A DNA stretch of 35,887 bases from Chiloscyllium plagiosum. Lineage: Eukaryota. The stretch lies in the NCBI RefSeq assembly GCF_004010195.1, contig NC_057749.1, positions 17,744,203-17,780,089 on the forward strand, in the 5' to 3' direction. Of the stretch, positions 195-35,487 are shown piece by piece (position 1 is the first letter of the stretch; every line of letters begins with the position of its first letter). The notes under the pieces were generated by a model. That model was given only the letters and a program-made list of their open reading frames with translations. It was not told the origin of the DNA and ran no database searches. The translations under genes and the position numbers were made by a program.

Positions 195-256
195 TTTATT
201 GACTATGATTGGGGTTGTCAGCCTGCGCCAATCAGTGAGCCCTGGATGACGGATAT

Positions 257-2570
257 AAACAGGGGAAGAGGTAGGCGCCGCAGGGAGTGGAGTGCATCAT
301 TTCTCCCTCCAACTCTATTTTGATTTAGTCCCTACCCTCCCCTTCACTGTTTTGATCACACAGCACTGTCCTTTGATGTGAAGGGCAGTGCTTGTCACTG
401 GCCACCCGGGTGTTTTCCTATCTTCCTGGTGGTGGAAATTGAATAAAGATTGGTGCACTTTGTGTCTTTCACTGTGTCTCCCACCTGCACACACACACCA
501 TGGGTGCTGGGGATAAAATAAGCACTACCGCACTTAGGTGGTAGTGTGGGGGTTAAATTTAAAAAAGAAAAAAAAAGAAAAAGAAAAAAAATAAATAAAT
601 AAAAAGGAGTATCTTCTCCCTCCAATTCTATTTTGATTTAGTCCCTACCCTCCCCTTCACTGTTAAAAAAAAGGAAAAAAAAAGAAGAATAAAAAAAAAT
701 AATAATAAATAAACAGGGGAAGAGGTAGGCGCCGCAGGGAGTGGAGTGCATCATTTCTCCCTCCAACTCTATTTTGATTTAGTCCCTACCCACCCCTTCA
801 CTGTTTTGATCACACAGCACTGCCCTCTGATGTGAAGGNNNNNNNNNNNNNNNNNNNNNNNNNNNNNNNNNNNNNNNNNNNNNNNNNNNNNNNNNNNNNN
901 NNNNNNNNNNNNNNNNNNNNNNNNNNNNNAATAAATAAAAAAAAATAAAAAAAATACACAGGAGGGAGCACTTTGTGTCTTTCACTGAAAAAAAAAACAG
1001 GGGAAGAGGTGGGCGCCGCATGGAGTGGAGTGCATCATTTCTCCCTCCAACTCTATTTTGATTTAGTCCCTACCCTCCCCTTCACTGTTTTGATCACACA
1101 GCACTGTCCCTTGATGTAAAGGGCAGTGTTTGTCACTGGCCACCCAGGTGTTTTCCTATCTTCCTGGTGGTGGAAATTGAATAAAGATTCGTGCACTTTG
1201 TGTCTTCCACTGTGTCTCACACCTGCACACACACACACCATGGGTGCTGGGGAAAAAAAAAATAAGCACTAAAAAAAATAAATAAAATAAACAGGGGAAG
1301 AGGTGGGTGCCGCAGGGAGTGGAATGCATCATTTCTCCCTCCAACTCTATTTTGATTTAGTCCCTACCCTCCCCTTCACTGTTTTGATCACACAGCACTG
1401 TCCCTTGATGTGAAGGGCAGTGTTTGTCACTGGCCACCCAGGTGTTTTCCTATCTTCCTGGTGGTGGAAATTGAATAAAGATTTGTGCACTTTGTGTCTT
1501 TCACTGTGTCTCACACCTGCACACACACACCATGGGTGCTGGGGAAAAAATAAGCATTACCGCACTTAGGTGGTAGTGTGGGGGTTAAATTTTTTTAAAA
1601 AAGAAAAGAAAAAAAAAGAAAAAAAACTTAACCAGGGATTGGTGGGCGCCGCAGGGAGTGGAGTGCAAGAAGAAAAAAAAATAAACAGGGGAAGAGGTGG
1701 GTGCCGCAGGGAGTGGAGTGCATCATTTCTCCCTCCAACTCTATTTTGATTTAGTCCCTACCCTCCCCCTCACTGTTTTGATCACACAGCACTGCCCTTT
1801 AATAGATAGAGTAGACAGTCAGAAACTTTTTCCCCGGGTACAACAGAGTGTTACAAGGGGACATAAATTTAAGGTGAAGGGTGGAAGGTATAGGGGAGAT
1901 GTCAGGGGTGGGTTCTTTACCCAGAGAGTGGTGGGGGCATGGAATGCGCTGCCCGTGGGAGTGGTAGAGTCGGAATCATTGGCGACCTTTAAGCGGCATT
2001 TGGATAGGTACATGGATGGGTACTTAATCTAGGTTAGAAGTTCGGCACAACATCGTGGGCCGAAGGGCCTGTTCTGTGCTGTATTGTTCTATGTTCTATG
2101 TTTGTCACTGGCCACCCGGGTGTTTTCCTATCTTCCTGGTGGTGGAAGTTGAATAAAGATTCGTGCACCTTGTGTCTCTCACTGTGTCTCACACCTGCAC
2201 ACACACACCATGGGTGCTGGGGCAAAAATAAGCACTACCGTGGTTAGGCGGGAGTGTGGGGGTTTTAAAAAATAAAAATAAAAAGATAAAAAAGAAAAAA
2301 ATAAACATAAAAAAAGGGAATGAGGTGGGCTCCGCGGGGTATGGAGTGTTTTATCTCCCCCTCTAATTCTGTTTTGATTTAATCCCTATTCCCCCCCCAC
2401 CCCTTTCACTGTTTTGATCACTTCGGCATTGCCCTCTGGGAAGGGCACTGCTTGTCTCTGGACACTCGGGTGTTTCCTTTCTTCCTGGTGGTGGAATGTG
2501 ACTCATGTTTTCTGCACTAGTTGTTTCTTCGCTGTGTCCTATACCTACACACACACATGCACACTATATA
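257..2570 (+). mobile_element. Head-to-tail array of Tx1-clade non-LTR retrotransposon 3' ends (about 300-bp units plus shorter pieces, each A-tailed)
   Basis: Units start at about 257, 606, 709, 958, 995, 1288, 1630, 1682 and 2316. Most begin AAACAGGGGAAGAGGT(A/G)GG and encode a terminal peptide RWAPQGVECIISPSNSILI*; complete units end GGTAGTGTGGGGGTT plus an A-rich tail. The same 3' end is linked to a Tx1-like ORF2 at 13561-14195. Confidence 0.8.
1801..2100 (+). mobile_element. CR1 LINE 3' end nested in a Tx1 unit
   Basis: Peptide IDRVDSQKLFPRVQQSVTRGHKFKVKGGRYRGDVRGGFFTQRVVGAWNALP (CR1 ORF2 C-terminus) and a (GTTCTAT)n-type tail. Confidence 0.9.
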
Positions 2571-2700
2571 TAAAACCAGGAGATTAGAATCTCCTCAGTT
2601 GAAGACTGACTCCGAGCTGGCAAAAAAAAAATGTAAATAGGATTTTGTGTAACCAGGAGGTTCCGAATCTCCTCAGTTCAGGGGACTGACTCTGAGCTGG

Positions 2701-4393
2701 CTGCTGTTACAGTCAGTGTGTTACTGTTGGTTTCTACTTCTCTTTTTTTTGGAGGGGGAAACCTGATGCCTGAATTATTTAGTCAGTTTGTTAACTGCCA
2801 TTCCTCTTTTTTTTTTTCTTCTTTTTTAACTGCCATTCCTCTTAGTGAGGACTGATTGTTAAACTCCTGATGCACATCATGTGTTTCAGGTGAAACTCAG
2901 TTCTCATTAGGGGACTGTTGTTTCACTGGCTGGTTATAGCCTGTGTGTTACTCTTTTCTCTCCTTTTACTTTTGAGAAAAGGACAATGTGGATTTTTGGT
3001 AGCCTTTGGACTCTAGTTTTCTTTGTCCTTTCTTGTATGTGTCTTCACTTTTTATTGGTGTTTGGACTGAGCCCTTGTGGAAGACATACATTTCACCAGA
3101 GGAGCTGTTCCTATGGGGAGGCCTAGCCCTCTGAAGATTGAACACCTGTGTGTGTGCTGGGAGGTGAGCAGTTGCTGTATCCTGGAGTTTGGCACACAGA
3201 CCTCTCCTTCAGGAGTGGATCAAACCCCTGCGAGTTAATTGCACCTGTACTATGTTCCTGTGAGTGGGCCTGGTTTTCCAAGGCTGGGCCAGGGCTCCAT
3301 GGAGACTGACTGCCTGTGTGCTGTGGGATGTGCATTTGCTGCCTTCAGGAGTGGACTCTGCCCTTGGTTGTGGACTCTGTTTTTAGCAACAGACTCTGCT
3401 GTTTGGAGTGGACCCCATTTCTGACAATGCACATTGTATACTGGAGTGGACTCTTCCTGGAAATGGATTCTATATTTTGAAGACTGTATAGAGTTGGACT
3501 GTGTACCAGAAAGGACTCTGTTTTTTGATAATTAACTGTATTGTGGTGTTTCCTGGGTCTATCACTTGCACTGTCTTGTGTGTCCCTGGGTCTGGTAGGC
3601 CTTACTGTGAGCTGGGAGGCTCATGGGTCGTCCTGAAAGCTGTCACCCCGAGAGCCGGAGGGTGGGTAGGCCATCCTGTGAACCTGAAGGTTGGTAGGCT
3701 GTCCTGAAAGCTGGTGGGTGGTATGCCACCCTGATGCCAGTCCCCCAAGAGCCAGATGGTGGGTAGGCTGTTCTAAGCGCTATCGTCCTAAGAAGGGGTA
3801 TTCGGGACGGGCTGTCCTAAAGGTGTGTCAGAGCAGCTGAGAGCCAGAAAGTGCGTAGGGGTGGGCTGAGATCCAGAAGGCTTGTGGGCTACCCTGCAAG
3901 CTGTCATCCCAGGGAAGGAGATGGGCTGTCCTAGAGGTGGCTGGATGGTGTACCAGGATAGCCCATTGGCTGGATGGTGCATCGGGGTGGGTGAGAGCCC
4001 AATGGTACATAGGGGCAGACCGAGAGCCAGAAGGCAGGTAGCCGTCCTGACTGCTGTCACCCCGGGCGGGTACCGGGGCAGGCTGCCCTAGAGGTGGTCG
4101 AAAGGTGTGTCAGGGCAGACCGAGAACTGGAAGGGGCATGGGGTGGACTGGGAGCGGGAAGGTGCGTGGGGGCGGGCTGCCTTAGAGTGGTCGGAAGGTG
4201 GGAGGGATGGGGTCTTGCTGGGTCTGTATTGTATGCACTGTTTATGTAACTGGATTAGCTTTTTATGTACAAATGTCGCTGTCTTTTATATGTGGAACTG
4301 GGATTTGAGGTTTGTCCTCATCTCCCTGTAAACTGGTTGAACGGTAGGGTTTGGAGCCTAGCTTTGCTGCTCTTCTCCCTTGTATATAATTAT
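2701..4393 (+). other. Unclassified 1.7-kb insert inside the LTR, bounded by 125-bp direct repeats
   Basis: 2576-2700 and 4394-4518 are near-identical. The interior has recurring GGAGTGGACTC motifs (about 3210-3500), degenerate GC-rich repeats (GGCTGTCCT(A/G).../CCGAGAGCC, about 3620-4200) and a T-rich end. Confidence 0.5.
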
Positions 4394-13325: not shown

Positions 13326-13560
13326 GAAACACCTCATTGAGGACATAACCAGCAGAGTTACTAGTTTAACCAAGATAATCAGATTAGTTGAGGATGGTGA
13401 TAATCCTGAATGTTAGGATTGTAATGCTCTCATGGCTTTTGCTGGAGTAATATATCCCAAACTGCTTCATGGCTGCATGATCAAACTAAACTTAACAAGA
13501 CAATATTCAGGCAGGTAGCCAAAAGCTTGGCTGCTGAGATAGATTTTGAGCATTGTTTTA

Positions 13561-14195
13561 TTTTTTTTTCTTTTTTTGGAAAACACCCGAGTGGCCAGTG
13601 ACAAACACTGCCCTTAACACTCCTTTTTTTTTTCTTTAACCCCCACACTACCACCTAAGTGCGGTAGTGCTTATTTTATCCCCAGCACCCATGGTGTGTG
13701 TGTGCAGGTGGGAGACACAGTGGAAGACACAAAGTGCACCAATCTTTATTCNNNNNNNNNNNNNNNNNNNNNNNNNNNNNNNNNNNNNNNNNNNNNNNNN
13801 NNNNNNNNNNNNNNNNNNNNNNNNNNNNNNNNNNNNNNNNNNNNNNNNNNNNNNNNNNNNNNNNNNNNNNNNNNNNNNNNNNNNNNNNNNNNNNNNNNNN
13901 NNNNNNNNNNNNNNNNNNNNNNNNNNNNNNNNNNNNNNNNNNNNNNNNNNNNNNNNNNNNNNNNNNNNNNNNNNNNNNNNNNNNNNNNNNNNNNNNNNNA
14001 TGGCCAGTTTGGCCAGGCCCAGGGGCAGACCCACGAGGAGGTCTTCAGACCTGCCCTCCTTCCTCCGTACCGGGTGCCCAAAGATCAGGAGCGTGGGACT
14101 GAAGTGCAGCCAAAAATAGAGGAGAAGGTTTTTAAGGAAATCAAAAAGGGAGTGCAAACGCCCACACCCAATATAGACGTGGTCCACGGACTCCA
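13561..14195 (-). mobile_element. 5'-truncated Tx1-clade non-LTR retrotransposon (ORF2 C-terminus, 3' UTR, poly(A)) with a second short unit
   Basis: Peptide ESVDHVYIGCGRLHSLFDFLKNLLLYFWLHFSPTLLIFGHP...LGLAKLA (end of the L1/Tx1 CCHC knuckle). The 3' UTR matches the 257-2570 units. A 15-bp TSD TTGAGCATTGTTTTA at 13546-13560 and 14196-14210 ties both sides of the N-gap together. Confidence 0.85.
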
Positions 14196-16040: not shown

Positions 16041-16629
16041 ACCAGTGACACCCTCAAGACATCAGAGACCAGGCAGAGCCCCCCTGCTCTTCCCAGAGAT
16101 AGTGACGTGGGATCTTTACATTCAGACTGGCTCTTGGTTTAATGTCACACCTGAAAGACTGCACCTTCAACAGTATCTTCTCAGATCAACAGTGGAGGAG
16201 TCAGCGAGATTGAGTTGGAAACTCTCCAAAGATGCTGTTCAACCTACAGCCAACTACCTCAGCGAGACTGAGGGCCTGCCGACTGGGGGAGAGGGATGGG
16301 CTGGGGTGGGGTGGAGACTGAGGGGCACCCATTGAGTGGCGTCTCAGTCTTGGCTTTGCAGCAGTGTTGTGAAGATTGCCTCCCTAACCACATCGTCAGG
16401 TGCTATTGTTTGCGCGAAATTATGCTTTAATCAGTTCGGTTTCCTTCTGCCAGAATGCGGTTCCAGATGCTGCTTTGAGCTGTTGAGTATTTGGAGCATT
16501 TTCTGTTTTCTGTCCTGGCTGATGTCCCTCCCCCTTTCAGTCCCAGAGCTCATTCACAGAGATCTCTGTTGTGGGGGACATACCACTGCATTGTTTGCCT
16601 ACCTGACAACTAAGTAAACTTTAACAAAT

Positions 16630-17972
16630 AGATGGTGACACCTTGCAAAATGTCCAGATTACAGAGGAGGAAGTGCTGGATGTCTTGAAACGCATAAAGG
16701 TGGATAAATCCCCAGGACCTGATCAGGTGTACCCTAGAACTCTGTGGGAAGCTAGAGAAGTGATTGCTGGGCCTCTTACTGAGATATTTGTATCATCGAT
16801 AGTCACAGATAAGGTGCTGGGAGACTGGAGGTTAGCTAACGTGGTGCCACTGTTTAAGAAGGATGGTAAGGACAAACCAGGGAACTATAGACCGGTGAGC
16901 CTGACATCGGTGGTGGGCGAGTTGTTGGAGGGAATCCTGAGGGACAGGATGTACATGTATTTGGAAAGGCAAGGACTGATTCGGGATAGTCAACATGGCT
17001 TTGTGCATGGGAAATCATATCTCACAAACTTGATTGAGTTTTTTGAAGAAGTAANNNNNNNNNNNNNNNNNNNNNNNNNNNNNNNNNNNNNNNNNNNNNN
17101 NNNNNNNNNNNNNNNNNNNNNNNNNNNNNNNNNNNNNNNNNNNNNNNNNNNNNNNNNNNNNNNNNNNNNNNNNNNNNNNNNNNNNNNNNNNNNNNNNNNN
17201 NNNNNNNNNNNNNNNNNNNNNNNNNNNNNNNNNNNNNNNNNNNNNNNNNNNNNNNNNNNNNNNNNNNNNNNNNNNNNNNNNNNNNNNNNNNNNNNNNNNN
17301 NNNNNNNNNNNNNNNNNNNNNNNNNNNNNNNNNNNNNNNNNNNNNNNNNNNNNNNNNNNNNNNNNNNNNNNNNNNNNNNNNNNNNNNNNNNNNNNNNNNN
17401 NNNNNNNNNNNNNNNNNNNNNNNNNNNNNNNNNNNNNNNNNNNNNNNNNNNNNNNNNNNNNNNNNNNNNNNNNNNNNNNNNNNNNNNNNNNNNNNNNNNN
17501 NNNNNNNNNNNNNNNNNNNNNNNNNNNNNNNNNNNNNNNNNNNNNNNNNNNNNNNNNNNNNNNNNNNNNNNNNNNNNNNNNNNNNNNNNNNNNNNNNNNN
17601 NNNNNNNNNNNNNNNNNNNNNNNNNNNNNNNNNNNNNNNNNNNNNNNNNNNNNNNNNNNNNNNNNNNNNNNNNNNNNNNNNNNNNNNNNNNNNNNNNNNN
17701 NNNNNNNNNNNNNNNNNNNNNNNNNNNNNNNNNNNNNNNNNNNNNNNNNNNNNNNNNNNNNNNNNNNNNNNNNNNNNNAGGAAGTGGTGGAGGCTGGTAC
17801 AATTGCAACATTTAAGAGGCATTTGGATGGGTATATGAATAGGAAGGATTTGGAGGGATATGGGCAGGGTGCTGGCAGGTGGGACTAGATTGGGTTGGGA
17901 TATCTGGTCGGCATGGACGGGTTGGTCTGAAGGGTCTATTTCCACGCTGTACATCTCTATGACTCTACGACT
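16630..17972 (+). mobile_element. CR1 LINE ORF2 (RT region) through to the 3' end, spanning an N-gap
   Basis: Peptide KSPGPDQVYPRTLWE...DWRLANVVPLFKK...NYRPVSLTSVVGELLE...SQHGF...LTNLIEFFEEV; after the gap a CR1 3' UTR ends CTCTATGACTCTA. Confidence 0.92.
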
Positions 17973-21512: not shown

Positions 21513-21724
21513 AGCGTTGGGTGTCTCTGGAGAAAGCGACCCAAATGGGGAGAAGGATGAGAAGGATCAGGTGGATGTGTAACACAGACTTCACTCTGCG
21601 TGAGTGCTACGTTTTTCCTGTTTAACCTGAATTTCCTTCCTGTAGTTAACTGATGAATGTGGAATGAAGAACCCCTGCTTCAGGATGTTTGGTCAGTCCC
21701 TATGTTCAAATCTCGTGTTACAAG

Positions 21725-23791
21725 TGAAATAATTCCACAGAGGCCTGAATCCTGTTACCGAGTCCCCTTTTATTTTCATGGGGAGAGTCCTTGACACTGA
21801 TCCAGCTCCCTCAGACCCAGCTCTGAGTGAGCAGAACCTCTGACACTCCTGTTTTTAAATTTTTTTTATTTTTCTTCACAAATCCCCAGTTTTTTTTTTT
21901 AACCCCCACACTACCGCCTAACCGCAGTAGTGCTTATTTTACCCCCAGCACCCATGGTGTGTGTGTGCAGGTGTGAGACACAATGACAGACACAAGCTGC
22001 ACAACCCTTTATTCAATTTCCACCACCAGGAAGATAGGAAAACACCCGGGTGGCCAGTGACAAACACTGCCCTTCACATCACATCAAAGGGGCAATGCTG
22101 ACACTCCTGTTTTTGTTTTACTCCTGTTTGTTTGTTTATTTATTAATTAATTAATTAATTTATTTATTTATTTTCTTACACTCCTGATTTTTTTTTAAGG
22201 GCAATGCTGAGACTCCTGTTCATTTTTTTTTCTTTTTTTTATATTAACCCCCACACTACCGCCTAACTGCGGTAGTGCTTATTTTTCCCCAGTACCCATG
22301 GTGTGTGTGTGCAGGTGTGAGACACANNNNNNNNNNNNNNNNNNNNNNNNNNNNNNNNNNNNNNNNNNNNNNNNNNNNNNNNNNNNNNNNNNNNNNNNNN
22401 NNNNNNNNNNNNNNNNNNNNNNNNNNNNNNNNNNNNNNNNNNNNNNNNNNNNNNNNNNNNNNNNNNNNNNNNNNNNNNNNNNNNNNNNNNNNNNNNNNNN
22501 NNNNNNNNNNNNNNNNNNNNNNNNNNNNNNNNNNNNNNNNNNNNNNNNNNNNNNNNNNNNNNNNNNNNNNNNNNNNNNNNNNNNNNNNNNNNNNNNNNNN
22601 NNNNNNNNNNNNNNNNNNNNNNNNNNNNNNNNNNNNNNNNNNNNNNNNNNNNNNNNNNNNNNNNNNNNNNNNNNNNNNNNNNNNNNNNNNNNNNNNNNNN
22701 NNNNNNNNNNNNNNNNNNNNNNNNNNNNNNNNNNNNNNNNNNNNNNNNNNNNNNNNNNNNNNNNNNNNNNNNNNNNNNNNNNNNNNNNNNNNNNNNNNNN
22801 NNNNNNNNNNNNNGGATCTTTCTATGCATCCTATTAATTCACATTCCAAAATTACTGGTTATACTCTTTCAAGTCTGTCCTAGTCTTGCTTATCTCTAAG
22901 GACTGCTTGAATTCTGTTATTCATTGTGGTCCATGTGCTATCTCTCTGAAATTCTGTTCTTCCTCTTACATTTTCAACTGTCCCAATTATAAATTTAAAA
23001 CATACAAAAGACAGTTGATTTGAACTAGCTTCTGTAAGAGTAGTCGTATTAATTTCCCAATATCAAGTTAGTTGTACTTTTTAATTAATAAGTTATGAAC
23101 AATCTATTTCATTCAGGACATGCCAGGCCTGGGTCTAGTTAACATTTACATCTAGATTTAAATGTTTATTCCCTAATGCTTCTATTATACTTTAGTTATA
23201 TATGTATCTATAATTATGTTGAAATCTATTTCTATGATTATCTGAAGAATCTTTAACGAAAACCTATTTCTTAATATTGTGAATAACGTCAAAGAAATAA
23301 CTGATTACTACAAAATAACCTTAGCTGTTGTTTCATAGCTGTTTAATGAGTTAGGCTGACTGGTTTATGGGTTGAGATTTACACCCCTTGTTCGAACTGG
23401 TGATGCTAACGAATGGGACAACACCCTTTCATTAATGAGGCTAGAATTAATCACATGTCGTATTTTAATGAACTTGTGTCTTATCCTTAGATATCCTCTT
23501 AGCAAAGCATCTCGGAAAGTCACTTGTAGGGTCTCCTATTTAGCTTGTTCAAAGGTACCATTAAGTTTCGCTTAAATTTTTTTTTCCACCACCAGGAAGA
23601 TAGGAAAACACCCGGGTGGCCAGTGACAAACACTGCCCTTCACATCAAAGGGCAGTGCTGTGTGATCAAAACAGTGAGGAGGAGGGTAGGGACATCACTC
23701 CTGTTTATAGCTGTCAACCAGGGCTCCCTGATTGGATCAGGTTAACAGCCTAATCATACTGTATGAGGCTGACCTCATTCCAATCGCTACA
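21725..23791 (-). mobile_element. Solo LTR (about 225 bp net) split at its TATA box by nested insertions
   Basis: Minus strand starts TGTAGCG (23791), then CCAATCAGGGAGCCCTGG, TATAAACAGGAGTG and AATAAA, and ends ATTATTTCA (21725). A 5-bp TSD ACAAG lies at 21720-21724 and 23792-23796. Confidence 0.88.
21855..23695 (-). mobile_element. Second stack of Tx1-clade 3' ends and A-rich tails inside the LTR
   Basis: Units at about 21890-22098, 22222-22326 and 23577-23695. The target motif ACTCCTG(TTT) repeats at 21841-21854, 22099-22112, 22120-22129, 22178-22186, 22208-22220 and 23696-23706. Confidence 0.85.
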
Positions 23792-24729
23792 ACAAGATGA
23801 CAGTGTACATGAACACACACTGACCTGTCTCAGCACAACAAAATAGGTGATGCCTGTTCTCAGTTTTTTTCCTCAGGCAAAGCTTTGACCAATCGTTTAG
23901 AATTTAAATTGTTTAGAATTTAAGCAAAGTTTGGCAGTTAACTGTCAGTCATCATTAACTGGAGCATTCTCTGTGGCAACAACTGTACCAATTAGAGTTC
24001 ACTTTCCAGCCAGTCGGTGCTCACCTCTCAAATGATATAAATGCTGTTTTCCCTTTATGTCCCTTTGATGAATAGCATCTCTTTACAACAGTGACCATTT
24101 GCAGTATCAGGAAAGTTCCTCTGGTGTCTGAGGGACATTCGTCTCTGAACGAACACCAGCTGCAGTGGACTCCCCTGGTTATTCCGATCCTCTCTCCGGG
24201 ACTTTCCTGATTGTGTACAGTCTAGCTGTTGTGTCTGTGACTATTGCACCCACACTCCAAATGGAGTCCATTACACATTAGGACTTCCAAGTTTAAATCC
24301 TTGACTGATCTCTGTACCTTTCCCCATCCCTCATCCTATTTCAACCAGTGATGAGGCAATACAAAATCAAGGATCAGAACATGAACCAGGAATTGAAATG
24401 GAGACACCCAACTACTTTATATATGTGCATCGGCTGCTTTAAGGATCATAACCCTTCAGTTCCTCTTGCGAGAAATAAACTCCTTAAGTTCTTACACAGA
24501 CAGAACAATTACTCTGAGACCAGAGCCTGAGGTAACATTATGTTTTTTTCTCTCTGATCCTGCCAATGTGTGTCCATTGAGTCTCTGATCACCACCTACA
24601 TCAAACCTTCATTGTTCTACATTCGCAATCTTACAGCTTCATTTAGACACTCAAATTAAGTGTCCTTTGAGGCATTTGTGAACAGACCTATCTCTATGTC
24701 AAGCAGAAATGAAATAATCATATTTATTT

Positions 24730-29203: not shown

Positions 29204-30279
29204 CCAATTCATTTCAGATTTGAAACATCAACTTAGCTTCTCTCTCCACAGGCACGGCCAGACCTGCTGAGTTATCTCCAACACTTTCTGCTTTTATTTC
29301 AGATTTCCAGTTTCTGCAGCATTTCATTTTTATCCCACTCTATTGTCACCCTGGTTTAGAACTCTAAATCTTTCACCTTAATTCCTCAGCCTTTCGGTCC
29401 AAAATCCTCACCGCTTCCCCAGGGTTCATTCATTTAAATCAATCTCAATAAAATTTATTTCTCTTGCCCCCAACTAATCCTCTCATAGAACCCAATGCAG
29501 CTGAAAAACACTGAAAGACTGTTATAGATTTGAAAAACTTGAAATTATAAAAGCAAAAATGAGATTCTTTGCAAATAGTCAGAAGAAACATTTATTCAGT
29601 ATGTAAGACAGCAGTCAGATGCTTTTCATCAGAAAGTGACAGAAATTAGATGAAGAATTCTCATTGTATCTGATGGTAATGACAACAGTTATTACCCTCG
29701 AGAGCTGCTACTTCACAATACCTTACCAGGCCTGATGTTTCAAATGGAACCAAATGCAAATTGCAGAACACAGTTAATTTATGATCAATCAGCAGATTTT
29801 ACAAACAGAGAGACACCTTGAAGTGGATGTAACAATTTAAATTGTTCCTAAATGTTACAAGGGGGATGTAATATATGAGACTATATCAAATAGGAATTGA
29901 GGGGAAGCTGGTCAGAGAATCCCAATAAGTTCCAACCCAGAATCACCCCATTCTGAACATCATCGACATCAGCCTGCATTTCTATAATCACCGAGAAATG
30001 CTGGGAATCTGAAATTGAAACAAAACGCTGGAGAAACTCAGCAGGTCCAGCAACATCCATGGAGAGAGAAATTGTGTTAAAGTTTCAAGTCCAATGACTC
30101 TTCTCCAGAACTGATAGATTTTCTATAAAACTGCTTCACAGGTTTCTCTATATTGACTTGTCTCAGTCCTCCCTCTCTCTGTCTCTGTCTCTCTCTGTCT
30201 CTATCTCTCTCTCTCCCTGACACTGACTGGTTTCTCCCTCTTTCCTTCCCCCCATTCCTCGACCTCCCCCCAACTCTCA

Positions 30280-30749
30280 GGGTGATATCTGTACACTGAC
30301 TGATGTCTGTCAGTCCCCTTCTCTCTTAGGGAGATATCTGTACACTGACCGGTGTCTCTCAGTCCCCTCACTCACTCAGGGAGGTATCTGTACACTGACT
30401 GGGGTCTCTCAGTTCCCTCACTCACTCAGGGAGGTATCTGTACACTGACTGGTGTCTCTCAGTCCCCCACTCACTCAGGGAGGTATCTGTACACTGACTG
30501 GGGTCTCTCAGTTCCCTCTCTCTCTCAGGGAGGTATCTGTACACTGACTGGTGTCTCTCAGTCCCCTCACTCACTCAGGGAGGTATCTGTACACTGACTG
30601 GGGTCGCTCAGTTCCCTCACTCTCTCAGGGAGATATCTGTACACTGACCAGTGTTTCTCAGTCCCCTCACTCACTCAAGGAGGTATCTGTACACTGACTG
30701 GGGTCTCTCAGTTCCCTCACTCTCTCAGGGGGATATCTGTACACTGACT
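30280..30749. repeat. 50-bp minisatellite, about 9 units
   Basis: Unit GG(T/G)GTCTCTCAGT(C/T)CCCTCACTCACTCAGGGAGGTATCTGTACACTGACT; a degenerate continuation follows at about 32184-32265. Confidence 0.95.
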
Positions 30750-32183
30750 GTGAAACTGAATAATTACTTCACATCAGTCTTCATGGTGGAAGACATGAGT
30801 AATATCCCAAACATTCAGGAGAGTGAAGGGGCAGAGCTGAGTATGGTGGCCATCAGCAAGGAGAAGGTGCTAGAAAACCTGAATGGCCTGTAGGTGGATA
30901 AATCACCTGGACCAGATGGACTACATCCCAGAGTTTAAAAGGAGATAGCTAAGGAGATAATGGAAGCATTAGTGGTGATCTTTCAGGAATTGCTAAAATC
31001 AGGGACAGTCCCAGAGGACTGGAAAATTGGTAATGTGACACCCCTGCTTCAAATGGGAGTAAGGTAAAGATGGAAAATTACAGACTGAGTAGCCTAACCT
31101 CAGTTGTGGGTAAGATCCTGAAATCCATTGTGAAGGATGAGATTTCTGAATACTTGGAGGTGTATGGCAAAATAGGGCAAAGTCAGCTTGGTTTCAGTAA
31201 GCTGACAGGTTAGGAGTGTGGGCAAAGAAGTGGCAGATGGAATAGAACATGACCTCACACTTTACCATGTTGTATTCCATCTGTGTGAGGTCATGTTCTT
31301 TGGTCAGAAGAATAGAAGCATGGACTATGTTCTAAATGGGGAGAAAATTCAGAAGTCTGAAGTGCAAAGAGACTTGGGAGTGCTAATCCAGGACTCTGTC
31401 AAAGTAAACCTGCAGGTTGAATCAGTAGTGGGGAAGGCAAATGCAATGTTGGCATTTATTTTGCGAGGACTTGAATATAAAAGCAGAGGTGTATTTCTGA
31501 GGCTCTATAATCTCTGGTCAGACCACATTTAGAGTATTGTGTGCAGTTTTGGGCCCCATATCTCAGGAAGGATATACTGGCCCTGGAGTGTGTTCAGAGG
31601 AGGTTCACAAGAATGGTTCCAGCAATGAGAAGTTTAACATATGAGGAATGTTTGAGGATTTATACTCGGTGGAGTTTAGAAGGATGAGAGGGAATCTAAT
31701 GGAAACATACAGAACACTGAATGGCCTGGACAGAGTAGATGTTGGGAAGATGTTTCCATTCTTTAACTTAAAAATGTGTTGCTGGAAAAACACAGCAGGT
31801 CAGGCAGCATCAAAGGAGCAGGAGAATTGACGTTTCCGGCATGAGCCCTTCTTCAGGAATCATCCTCCAAGATGTTTCCATTGGCAGGAGAGACTAAGAC
31901 CTGGGGCACAGCCTCAGAATAAAGGGAAGACCTTTTAGAACGGAGATAAAGAGAAACGTCTTCAGCCAGAGAGCGGTGAATCTATGGAATTCATTGCCAA
32001 AGGCCGCTATGGAGGCCAGGTGATTGAGTATATTTAACACTGAGATAGATAGGTTCTTGATTGTAAAAGGGATCACGGTTATGTGGTGAAAGCGGGGTGA
32101 AATTTATCAGCCTTGATTGAATGGCGGAGCAGACTTGATGGGCTGAATAGCCTAATCTCTGCTCCAATGTCTTTTGGTCTTAT
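30750..32183 (+). mobile_element. Decayed CR1 LINE (ORF2 with internal RT deletion, stops, 3' UTR)
   Basis: LNNYFTSVF...KSPGPDGLHPRV, then a jump at about 31200 to KKWQME, QRDLGV, KANAMLAFI and RRMRGNLMETYR; ends TCTTTTGGTCTTAT. Confidence 0.9.
31761..31868 (-). mobile_element. Short Penelope-derived insert within CR1
   Basis: Matches 28660-28745; minus CCTGAAGAAGGGCTCATGCCGGAAACGTC; 14-bp TSD AAGATGTTTCCATT at 31747-31760 and 31869-31882. Confidence 0.85.
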
Positions 32184-33119: not shown

Positions 33120-33510
33120 GCGTGGAGGTGCCAGTGTTAGACTGGGGTGGACTCCTTGGTAAAAACCAGGGCTGCAGATGCTGGAAACCAGAGTCTAGAC
33201 TAGAGTGCTGCTGGAAAGGCACAGCAGGTCAGGCAGCATCCGAGGAGCAGGACAATCGACGTTTCGGGCAAAAGCCGTGAGGAAATATTTCAATCATTCC
33301 TGATGAAGGGCTTTTGCCCAAAACGTCGATTTTCCTGCTCCTCGGATGCTGCCTGAACTGCAGTGCATTTCCAGCAGCACTCTAGTCTAGACTCTGGGTT
33401 GGACTCCTTACCTGATGGTTAACTGATGAAGGAGCAGTGCTCTGAAAGCTAGTGCTTCCAAATAAACCAGTTGGACTATAATCTGCCATTGTGTGATTAT
33501 TACCTTTGTT
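33120..33510. mobile_element. Nested Penelope-derived elements: a fold-back element (33158-33399) inside a second family
   Basis: Inverted arms at about 33188-33276 and 33309-33397; TGGACTCCTT duplicated at 33148-33157 and 33400-33409; the outer parts match the 8114-8304 family. Confidence 0.8.
33420..33455 (+). ncRNA. Minimal hammerhead-ribozyme-like motif
   Basis: CTGATGA-A-GGAGC-AGT-GCTCT-GAAA-GC-TA: conserved core boxes around a paired stem II with a minimal stem III, as known for Penelope-like elements. Activity is untested. Confidence 0.55.
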
Positions 33511-33538
33511 TTGTTCTGGTAGCCACACAGGAGTTTGT

Positions 33539-34974
33539 TGTGGATCAGTATCAGGGACCAATCACTGTGGATCAGTATCAGTGACCAATCACTGTGGATC
33601 AGTATCAGTGACCAATCGCTGTGGATCAGTAACAGTGACCAATCATTGTGGATCAGTAACAGGGACCAATCATTGTGGATCAGTATCAGTGACCAATCAC
33701 TGTGGATCAATATCAGTGACCAATCGCTGTGGATCAGTATCAGGGACCAATCCCTGTGGATCAGTAACAGGGACCAATCGCTGTGGATCAGTATCAGTGA
33801 CCAATCGCTGTGGATCAGTAACAGTGACCAATCGCTGTGGATCAGTATCAGTGACCAATCGATGTGGATCAGTATCAGTGACCAATCACTGTGGATAAAT
33901 ATCAGTGACCAATCACTGTGGATCAGTAACAGTGACCAATCGCTGTGGATCAGTATCAGTGACCAATCACTGTGGATCAGTATCAGTGACCAATCACTGT
34001 GGATCAGTAACAGTGACCAATCACTGTGGATCAGTAACAGGGACCAATCGCTGTGGATCAGTAACAGGGACCAATCGCTGTGGATCAGTATCAGGGACCA
34101 ATCCCTGTGGATCAGTAACAGGGACCAATCACTGTGGATCAGTAACAGGGACCAATCACTGTGGATCAGTAACAGTGACCAATCGCTGTGGATCAGTAAC
34201 AGTGACCAATCACTGTGGATCGGTAACAGTGACCAATCGCTGTGGATCCGTATCAGTGACCAATCCCTGTGGATCAGTATCGGTGACCAATCGCTGTGGA
34301 TCAGTATCGGTGACCAATCGCTGTGGATCAGTATCAGTGACCAATCACTGTGGATCAGTAACAGTGACCAATCGCTGTTGATCAGTATCAGTGACCAATC
34401 GTTGTGGATCATTATCAGTGACCAATCGCTGTGGATCAGTATCGGTGACCAATCGCTGTTGATCAGTAACAGTGACCAATCGCTGTGGATCATTATCAGT
34501 GACCAATCGCTGTGGATCAGTAACAGTGACCAATCGTGTGGATCATTATCAGTGACCAATCGCTGTTGATCAGTAACAGTGACCAATCGCTGTGGATCAG
34601 TAACATGACCAATCACTGTGGATCAGTATCAGTGACCAATCGCTGTGGATCAGTATCAGTGACCAATCACTGTGGATCATTATCAGTGACCAATCGCTGT
34701 TGATCAGTAACAGTGACCAATCACTGTGGATCAGTATCAGTGACCAATCGCTGTGGATCAGTAACAGTGACCAATCCCTGTGGATCAGTATCAGTGACCA
34801 ATAGCTGTGGATCAGTATCAGTGACCAATCCCTGTGGATCATTATCAGTGACCAATCGCTGTTGATTAGTAACAGTGACCAATCGTTATGGATCAGTATC
34901 AGTGACCAATCGCTGTGGAGCAGTATCAGTGACCAATCGCTGTGGATCAGTATCAGTGACCAATCATTGTTGAT
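33539..34974. repeat. 27-bp minisatellite, about 53 units
   Basis: Unit TGTGGATCAGTA(T/A)CAG(T/G)GACCAATC(A/G/C)C in direct tandem with no unique spacers. Confidence 0.97.
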
Positions 34975-35487
34975 TTGAAATACCCCAGTTTTGAGACCTT
35001 TCAGAATCTGTGGTCTACATCATCATCCAAGTGCACTACACTTCGCACATGTCACCCGTCAAACTATTCATATACAGCATCTCAAAATATTATTTTCTCA
35101 GAGAAATCTGTCCAATTTTCCTCTGAATATTTCAGTATGAGCTGCTTCCACCATCTCCCCGTGGAACATGTTTACGCGAGTGACTACTCGCTCACTGGAA
35201 TCCAGGTTTTGCAGAATATGTGGGAATTTCATCCCAGTCAAAAGAGGCCTGTGTTCTTCTGCATTCCCGTGGGAACAGAAACCCTCCTCATAGATATTCC
35301 CAAATCGAGTTGTTCAGACTGTTATTACATCTGTCTGGAGGAGGTGGGTGAGATTGGAGCTCACTCCTTCTGATCGTTGGCTTAGAGAGGGAGAACACAA
35401 AGGGGAGCAAGTTGTACAGAATCAGAATAAGACCCTGTCCCGTGCACTATGTTCAGATTGTACCCTGCACCACAGGAAGAGGACATG

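Follow-up and report, generated by a model that had tools for sequence, protein, structure and literature searches.

The stretch of Chiloscyllium plagiosum DNA described here, referred to as the window, is 35,887 nucleotides long (assembly GCF_004010195.1, contig NC_057749.1, positions 17,744,203 to 17,780,089 of the forward strand) and contains a solo long terminal repeat (LTR) that is split by pieces of a long interspersed nuclear element (LINE). The window is rich in interspersed repeats and holds several runs of N. The split LTR, designated locus 2 to distinguish it from a second array (locus 1) elsewhere in the window, lies on the minus strand and runs from 23791 to 21725. Its TG...CA ends are read directly in the sequence, as is the five-base duplication ACAAG (CTTGT on the minus strand) that flanks it at 21720-21724 and 23792-23796, and both agree with the initial annotation. 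Apart from the inserted material, the LTR has a frame of about 225 bp with its 5-bp duplication and is interrupted after TATAA. The 5' part of about 95 nt carries an ATTGG box and a CCAAT box followed by TATAAACAGGAGTG and ends at 23696. The 3' part begins with ACAGGAGTGTCAGAGG at 21852 and continues downward for 128 nt via AATAAA to ...TTTCA at 21725. What lies between the repeated target copies derives from the 3' region of the LINE, ends in poly(A), and has the same orientation as the LTR. The features of the locus are listed below in the direction of the LTR, with the LINE-derived pieces numbered U1 to U6 (UTR, untranslated region).

23792..23796, no strand: ACAAG duplication copy adjoining the LTR 5' end; the same 5-mer is present at 21720-21724.
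23697..23791, minus: LTR 5' part with TG start, ATTGG and CCAAT boxes, and TATAAA; 78-98% match in 29 other genomic copies.
23704-23697 with G at 23696, minus: target copy 1, ACAGGAGT, closing the LTR 5' part.
23577..23695, minus: LINE fragment U1, 5'-truncated 3' UTR up to ...GGTGGTGGAAA and an A-run; 95-96% complementary to the locus-1 copies (repeat pairs I11-I13).
22814..23576, plus: unrelated young repeat within the LINE copy, in opposite orientation; 8 other 100% identical places.
22328..22813, no strand: N-run of 486 nt.
22220..22327, minus: LINE fragment U2, the LINE 3' end (stem-loop, ...GGGGGTTAA) with an A-rich tail; repeat pairs D16 and D18.
22212..22219, minus: target copy 2, ACAGGAGT.
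22187..22211, minus: insert U3, 15 nt of LINE (CTCAGCATTGCCCTT) and A9; 5' junction as in U6 with one base changed.
22179..22186, minus: target copy 3, CAGGAGTG, preceded by T.
22128..22178, minus: insert U4, an A/T-rich tail only, of (TAAA)n and (TTAA)n type.
22120..22127, minus: target copy 4, ACAGGAGT.
22111..22119, minus: insert U5, a tail only, 9 nt (AAAACAAAA).
22102..22110, minus: target copy 5, ACAGGAGTG; together with the TCAG that follows it forms a 13-nt duplicated stretch.
21853..22101, minus: insert U6 (249 nt), 5'-truncated LINE 3' UTR joined by CAG microhomology and reaching the LINE 3' end and A-rich tail.
21725..21852, minus: LTR 3' part, opening with target copy 6 (ACAGGAGTGTCAGAGG), then AATAAA and the CA end; the corresponding halves of other LTR copies match at 66-86% identity.
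21720..21724, no strand: ACAAG duplication, second copy.

The motif ACAGGAGT is matched exactly six times across the window, where 1.88 matches would be expected; none of 100 shuffles reached six, and five of the six matches belong to locus 2 on the minus strand. The core CAGGAGT has 15 matches in the window; the six at locus 2 (23703-23697, 22218-22212, 22186-22180, 22126-22120, 22109-22103, and 21851-21845) are all on the minus strand and each directly follows an A-run. By our own arithmetic with equal base frequencies, about 0.1 copies of such a 7-mer are expected on one strand of the roughly 1.6 kb that can be read. The initial annotation had counted six repeats of this core, which is correct when the copy in the LTR 5' half and the copy with which the LTR resumes are both included; the number of inserts is at least five rather than six. 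It had also described Tx1 3' pieces after the LTR 5' part. The LINE origin of the pieces is confirmed, and U1 and U2 are probably a single LINE copy that was later broken by an unrelated repeat, because U1 stops and U2 restarts about 40 nt apart in LINE coordinates, in the same orientation, and what separates them looks like a young element. This intervening repeat (22814-23576) is matched at eight other, fully identical (100%) places in the genome that share an end at 23575 and stop at varied points, which is the pattern of a young 5'-truncating element, and it resembles neither the LINE nor the LTR loci. A DNA contig spans its border with U1 (23115-23606). The remainder of the repeat probably lies under the N-run, which may cover more of the young repeat together with about 40 nt of the LINE copy. 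With U1 and U2 read as one copy, at least five inserts lie between the six target copies, and the N-run could hide more. The junction GTGTCAG/CATTGCCC (the slash marks the join) is found twice in the locus, in one instance with one base changed.

Other copies of the same LTR, found by searching the 3.56-Gb assembly (101,977 contigs) with the 5' 100 nt, define the uninterrupted state of the site. This search gave 1265 first-look candidates, the best 40 of which were scored (77-98% identity); they yielded 30 loci including the window (loci outside the window carry L numbers in this text). The site is empty in 17 of the 29 non-self copies, which measure about 225 bp, carry a single motif and lack LINE sequence. 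In the remaining 12 it is filled at exactly the same site and always in the orientation of the LTR. The 5' junction in nine of the filled copies is to the LINE of locus 2, and the other three contain an element resembling a short interspersed nuclear element (SINE) with a tRNA head (L016), the end of another poly(A) RNA (L017), and another repeat (L020). When the two halves of the LTR in the window are laid on the empty copies, they overlap by exactly one shared ACAGGAGT, and no LTR bases are lost or repeated. The repeated motif is thus a duplicated target outside the LTR proper, because the empty copies hold a single ACAGGAGT. Both findings that would have spoken against the initial annotation, an absence of empty LTRs and the presence of the repeated motifs in the LTR consensus, were sought, and neither was encountered.

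The preference is equally visible from the side of the LINE. A search with the tail of U6 gave 856 candidates; the best 40 were scored and 29 non-self loci were returned, and the 39 scored non-self copies are 92-95% identical to U6 over 184 nt. Because of this identity, the LINE copies are taken to be younger than the LTR copies. Directly after the A-rich tail, a motif like ACAGGAG is present at the match position in 19 of the 27 sampled tails, a count given both by the rule and by inspection by eye (the rule made one false positive, L055, and one false negative, L041; in L057 and L059 it matched a spurious or variant word). Over all tails in the LINE loci, 55 of 81 show the A-rich tail and motif, and under a looser test of the motif the count is 57 of 81, compared with 15-18% at 2000 random positions. 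In DNA contigs from a separate run, other LINE copies are likewise joined to the target, read there as its reverse complement (CACTCCTGTTTA... is one example), and arrays with many different truncation points occur at other loci (L039, L043, L047, L051-L054, L057, and L059). There is a strong preference of this LINE for a motif of about 10 nt, and the LTR family supplies thousands of copies of it.

The junctions are distributed over a few positions. At 3' junctions the target resumes at CAGG, ACAGG, AACAGG, TAAACAGG or even TATAAACAGG. ATAA precedes the motif in 27 of 55 cases, therefore the duplication often begins at TAAAC, and together with the 3' junctions this would put the first nick at the AAA of TATAAAC, either inside it or immediately before it. 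Counted from the A of ACAGG, the 5' junctions fall 8-13 nt further on, mostly after ACAGGAGTGT(C). The join CAGGAGTGTCAG/CATTGCCC has 16 matches in the genome, two of which are the window's own, and its control has none. The CAG junction is thus a preferred microhomology join and not a peculiarity of locus 2. Its use of CAG microhomology, noted in the initial annotation, is real; as the junction recurs genome-wide, two units that share it are no proof of two clean local events.

Three sets of inserts other than plain LINE copies were observed at this target. In L016 (G000:C14, about 1597-1800) the sequence after the junction that follows TATAAACA is a tRNA-like head and then the LINE 3' region, at the same LTR site; it looks like a tRNA-headed SINE that borrows the tail and target of the LINE. 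In L017 (G000:C10, about 1556-1640), two copies of ACAGGAGTGTCTGGG enclose a 64-nt fragment that is unrelated to the LINE, has an AATAAA of its own, and ends in poly(A); the duplication at this insert is about 15 nt. Other poly(A) RNAs thus seem to be delivered to the target by the machinery of the LINE. Another repeat, with the start ...TTGTCTGCACTTTTGTATGTACTGTCTAATG..., is found at the same ACAGGAG target in L020, L033, L043, and L053; it may represent another LINE family or else a partner that is non-autonomous.

The LINE is assigned to the Tx1 clade from pairwise protein comparison, and the initial annotation was right at this level. An 847-amino-acid stretch of its second open reading frame (ORF2) matches the Xenopus "Transposon TX1 149 kDa protein" with 53% identity, 88% coverage, and an E value of 1e-251, and records from turtle, sturgeon, and elasmobranchs match ORF2 at 51-65%. 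Identity of ORF2 to an L1-like LINE in this genome is no more than 30-38%; the L1-like LINE in question adjoins the LTR in L061 and was set aside as a bystander. In the copy at L078 (4673-7215), the Exo_endo_phos domain scores 29 bits (cut-off 24.5) over residues 93-257 and RVT_1 scores 114 bits over residues 554-803, so that the endonuclease lies N-terminal to the reverse transcriptase (RT). An ORF1 fragment of the same copy (3356-4039) reaches 19.9 bits for zf-CCHC, just below the cut-off of 20.8. A CCHC zinc knuckle in ORF1 is a feature of the Tx1 clade. The lengths of open frames in the LINE copies, up to 1771 amino acids, are inflated by N-runs.

Long copies of the LINE have an unusual build. 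They start with a repeat of their own ORF2 end and 3' UTR, at least 730 nt in one copy, that is 5'-truncated to varied extents and has a constant end, ...GGGTGTTT(G/T)CCTAT, immediately ahead of the poly(A) signal inside the LINE. The repeat is followed by a unique 5' UTR and then by ORF1 (L076 1890-2020; L078 2286-2515; L080-L088; L090 1127-1380), and it is a terminal redundancy like that of an LTR. It was also observed that the LINE 5' UTR (L076 1995-2120) shares CAAGGACTCTCC and neighbouring bases with the R-like region of the LTR (window 21725-21852). This similarity is weak, with scores of 25, 22, and 31 in three copies against shuffle maxima of 25, 26, and 26; out of 500 mononucleotide shuffles, 1, 7, and 0 scored as high as the real sequence.

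On its sequence features, we take the split element to be the LTR of an old and mostly decayed LTR retroelement, Gypsy-like or retrovirus-like. As read from the sequence, CCAAT and TATAAA lie upstream and AATAAA downstream. Among nine other LTR copies with both ends visible, two have exact 5-bp duplications (L025 GTCAG and L007 GTGGG), three match at four of five duplication bases, and four have no duplication or an unclear one. These nine copies are solo LTRs because all their flanks differ. The LTR end followed by 0-3 nt and TGG has 681 genome matches, mostly ...TTTCA-G-TGG, against 46 for the control. The LTR end followed by GTGGCGATGGGAG, with at most two mismatches, has 249 matches against one for the control, a junction resembling a primer binding site, and hundreds of copies therefore border one conserved interior. 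The interior at L089 contains Integrase_H2C2 at 29.7 bits, above its cut-off, with RVT_1 and RT_RNaseH below theirs, in the order RT, RNase H, integrase. None of 35 frames from the interior at L079 had a Pfam match, and paired LTRs around a single interior were not seen among the loci examined.

These results are best explained by preferential integration of a Tx1-clade LINE at (T)AAACAGGAG(TGTC), directly 3' of the TATA box of the LTR, with regeneration of the target, a reading to which we assign a probability of about 85%. The layout of the locus, the empty and filled sites, the bias toward the target, the clade, and the LTR nature of the host are demonstrated, whereas we infer the positions of the nicks, the order of events, and a role of the endonuclease itself in reading the motif. 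The pattern fits target-primed reverse transcription, which is established for Tx1L, R1, and L1. The endonuclease would nick the bottom strand at the AAA of TATAAAC, either inside it or immediately on its 5' side, and the predicted nick bonds lie in TATAAACAGGAGTGTCAGAGG. The freed T-rich 3' end would pair with the A-rich or (TAAA)n tail of the LINE RNA and prime cDNA synthesis. A top-strand cut would follow about 8-13 nt further on, mostly after ACAGGAGTGT(C), and the end of the cDNA would be joined there, often through microhomology such as CAG. The duplication produced in this way would be about 10-15 bp and would include the recognized core. Because the duplication contains the motif, each insertion leaves two usable targets, and for the same reason arrays of truncated pieces with tail and motif are common throughout the genome. 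Repeated hits would line up 5'-truncated copies and stubs made of tail alone in a head-to-tail array, with an A-tail and ACAGGAGT between them; at locus 2, at least five rounds would have taken place in one solo LTR, and the unrelated repeat would have entered the first copy later.

Several points weigh against this explanation or restrict it. Both the LTR and the LINE-tail samples are the best-scoring 40 candidates of far larger sets and are not random. The N-run masks 486 nt of the locus, and the nick sites are read from junctions that are blurred by A-rich, often (TAAA)n, tails. Eight of the 27 sampled LINE ends lie at other sequences, so the preference is strong and not absolute. At L048 (G000:C36) the LINE used the off-target site ATGCTTTCAGT three times; regeneration of the target therefore works at a non-canonical site too. 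The LINE also uses AACCAGGAGA, a similar motif that belongs to a second LTR-like family (L039, L042, L060, and the end of locus 1 at about 2570-2760). The enzyme probably reads a short motif rather than "the LTR". U3 and U6 share one 5' junction except for one base, and some of the units may have arrived together with their "target" as one composite RNA or through local duplication. Composite RNAs are copied in this LINE family, because its long copies carry their own ORF2 end and 3' UTR at the 5' end. The proposal of serial site-specific insertion with target regeneration in the initial annotation accordingly holds for the site, given the 17 empty and 12 filled copies, and is relaxed as to whether each unit arrived by its own local event.

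Other origins of the array can be weighed on the same evidence. That the array was partly imported ready-made, through an RNA that ran across an existing array and was retrotransposed as one unit, so that not every target was regenerated locally, is unlikely. Some observations speak for it: the composite junction GGAGTGT/TAAGGGCAGTG follows a LINE tail both at about 13600 in the window and again in L078, which lies on a different chromosome-scale contig, the LINE copies that begin with at least 730 nt of their own 3' part imply that composite templates propagate, and RNA reads pass beyond tails into the flanks of other copies. At locus 2, however, full target copies separate the units, as local duplication predicts, and the CAG junction is the one composite of this locus that was searched for elsewhere. 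The shared 5' junction of U3 and U6 would also fit a single insertion in which the extra units and targets arose by unequal crossing-over or slippage between duplicated target copies, and slippage could make the tail-only stubs U4 and U5. We consider this very unlikely, as the full-sized units differ in their 5' truncation (ATGTCCC... compared with TCAGCATTGCC...) and have tails of unlike length and composition, arrays with multiple truncations are the rule at other loci, and the junction held in common is one that recurs across the genome (14 of its 16 matches lie outside the window). Finally, the ACAGGAGT motifs and A-rich stretches could be an internal repeat of the LTR family itself, with no insertion at all. 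This corresponds to the first impression of a repeat and to nothing else; it is already refuted by the empty LTR copies with their single motif, the sequence between the motifs comes from the 3' end of a LINE with coding capacity, and the probability of this reading is close to nil. Insertion of the LINE at a regenerated target thus remains the preferred explanation.

RNA data came from raw reads of a 3'-primed single-cell poly(A) library with the same species label. The 267 matching reads are strongly one-stranded, consistent with sense RNA of the LINE, and 265 of them fit only in part and therefore derive from other copies of the LINE. In 23 reads a T-run begins 14 nt past the internal AATAAAG, which may be a real poly(A) site or may come from priming on the genomic A-runs of truncated copies. 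A real site after AATAAAG would explain the 3'-truncated, poly(A)-ended pieces at locus 1 and elsewhere.

Locus 1 (about 200-2760, plus strand) consists of seven units that all start at ACAGGGG/AAGAGGTGGGCGCC and have varied ends with poly(A). Its junction shows microhomology with ...CAGGGAGAGGTGGGCGCC of the LINE, and its host is a second, related LTR-like family in which the target reads AACCAGGAG. The inserts of locus 2 pair with locus 1 as inverted repeats (I1-I3, I8, and I11-I13). The two loci are independent, as had been proposed, because the LTR-like families differ and the truncation points of locus 1 are not those of locus 2. A third LINE tail lies at 13558-13751 (minus strand), where it is followed by GGAGTGT and a 39-nt LINE piece and ends in a flank that is not LTR. 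Elsewhere in the window, an RT fragment of a different LINE family, mostly under an N-run, is present at 16625-17815 (plus strand), and tandem arrays of 27-bp units (49 copies in register) and 50-bp units (8 copies) occupy 33404-35000 and 30264-30766.

A broader interpretation is speculative and on balance doubtful. The site may be favored for lying between the TATA box of the LTR and its start site, in which case the LINE would be a parasite of the LTR promoter, its redundant 5' end would be an adaptation, and the same machinery would deliver the tRNA-headed SINE and other poly(A) RNAs. If so, a full-length copy in the orientation of the LTR would be transcribed from the LTR's own Pol II promoter, and the 5' repeat (at least 730 nt) and the LTR-R-like stretch would be adapted to a transcription start within the LINE's own 5' end. 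R1 and R2 in ribosomal DNA are site-specific LINEs, and R2 relies on the transcription of its target. HeT-A and TART at fly telomeres form head-to-tail arrays in which the 3' part of one element stands before the next element; the LINE described here resembles them in carrying at least 730 nt of its own 3' part at its 5' end. R1, R2, HeT-A, and TART belong to other clades than this LINE.

Few vertebrate LINEs are known to have a defined DNA target, and the locus contributes a well-documented example, for which one genome offers filled and empty natural sites by the hundred. With a target of about 10 bases that each insertion regenerates and that stands beside a promoter element, the LINE family provides a convenient natural system for the study of sequence reading by an apurinic/apyrimidinic (AP)-type endonuclease, of 5' joining by microhomology, and of the use of another element's promoter by a LINE. 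For genome annotation, it accounts for recurrent A-rich "tandem" arrays within LTRs. A literature search that did not extend to subscription journals and Repbase Reports found nothing on Tx1-type LINEs in the LTRs of cartilaginous or other fishes.

According to Kojima (2015, PMC4494074), many Tx1-clade families are target-specific: Tx1 of Xenopus enters the piggyBac-type element Tx1D, crocodilian families use Mariner-N4_AMi, Harbinger, or microsatellites, and the crocodilian Tx1-8_Crp and Tx1-4_AMi target LTR retrotransposons. The same paper regards a family as target-specific when more than 20% of its flanks are of one type. By that measure the present LINE is target-specific, because 19 of its 27 sampled flanks are of one type and exceed this share, and on the LTR side 12 of 29 copies are filled at one site. 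Tx1L of Xenopus laevis, its closest named protein relative, has the same order of AP endonuclease and RT and likewise a preferred target inside another mobile element (PMC4494074). It differs in its host genome and in that its target is a piggyBac-type DNA transposon, whereas the LINE described here lands in the LTR of an LTR retroelement, immediately 3' of the TATA box, and very commonly forms arrays in which truncated copies alternate with regenerated targets. Keno (U2 small nuclear RNA genes), Kibi and Koshi (microsatellites), Tx1-Mar (Mariner-N4_AMi), and Tx1-9_AMi (Harbinger) belong to the same clade and share the habit of landing in multicopy sequence, but their targets and the classes of those targets are different. 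Tx1-8_Crp and Tx1-4_AMi are similar in having LTR retrotransposons as targets, as one sentence of the same paper states. The LINE family is thus an addition to the known target-specific LINEs of the Tx1 clade and not a new kind of element.

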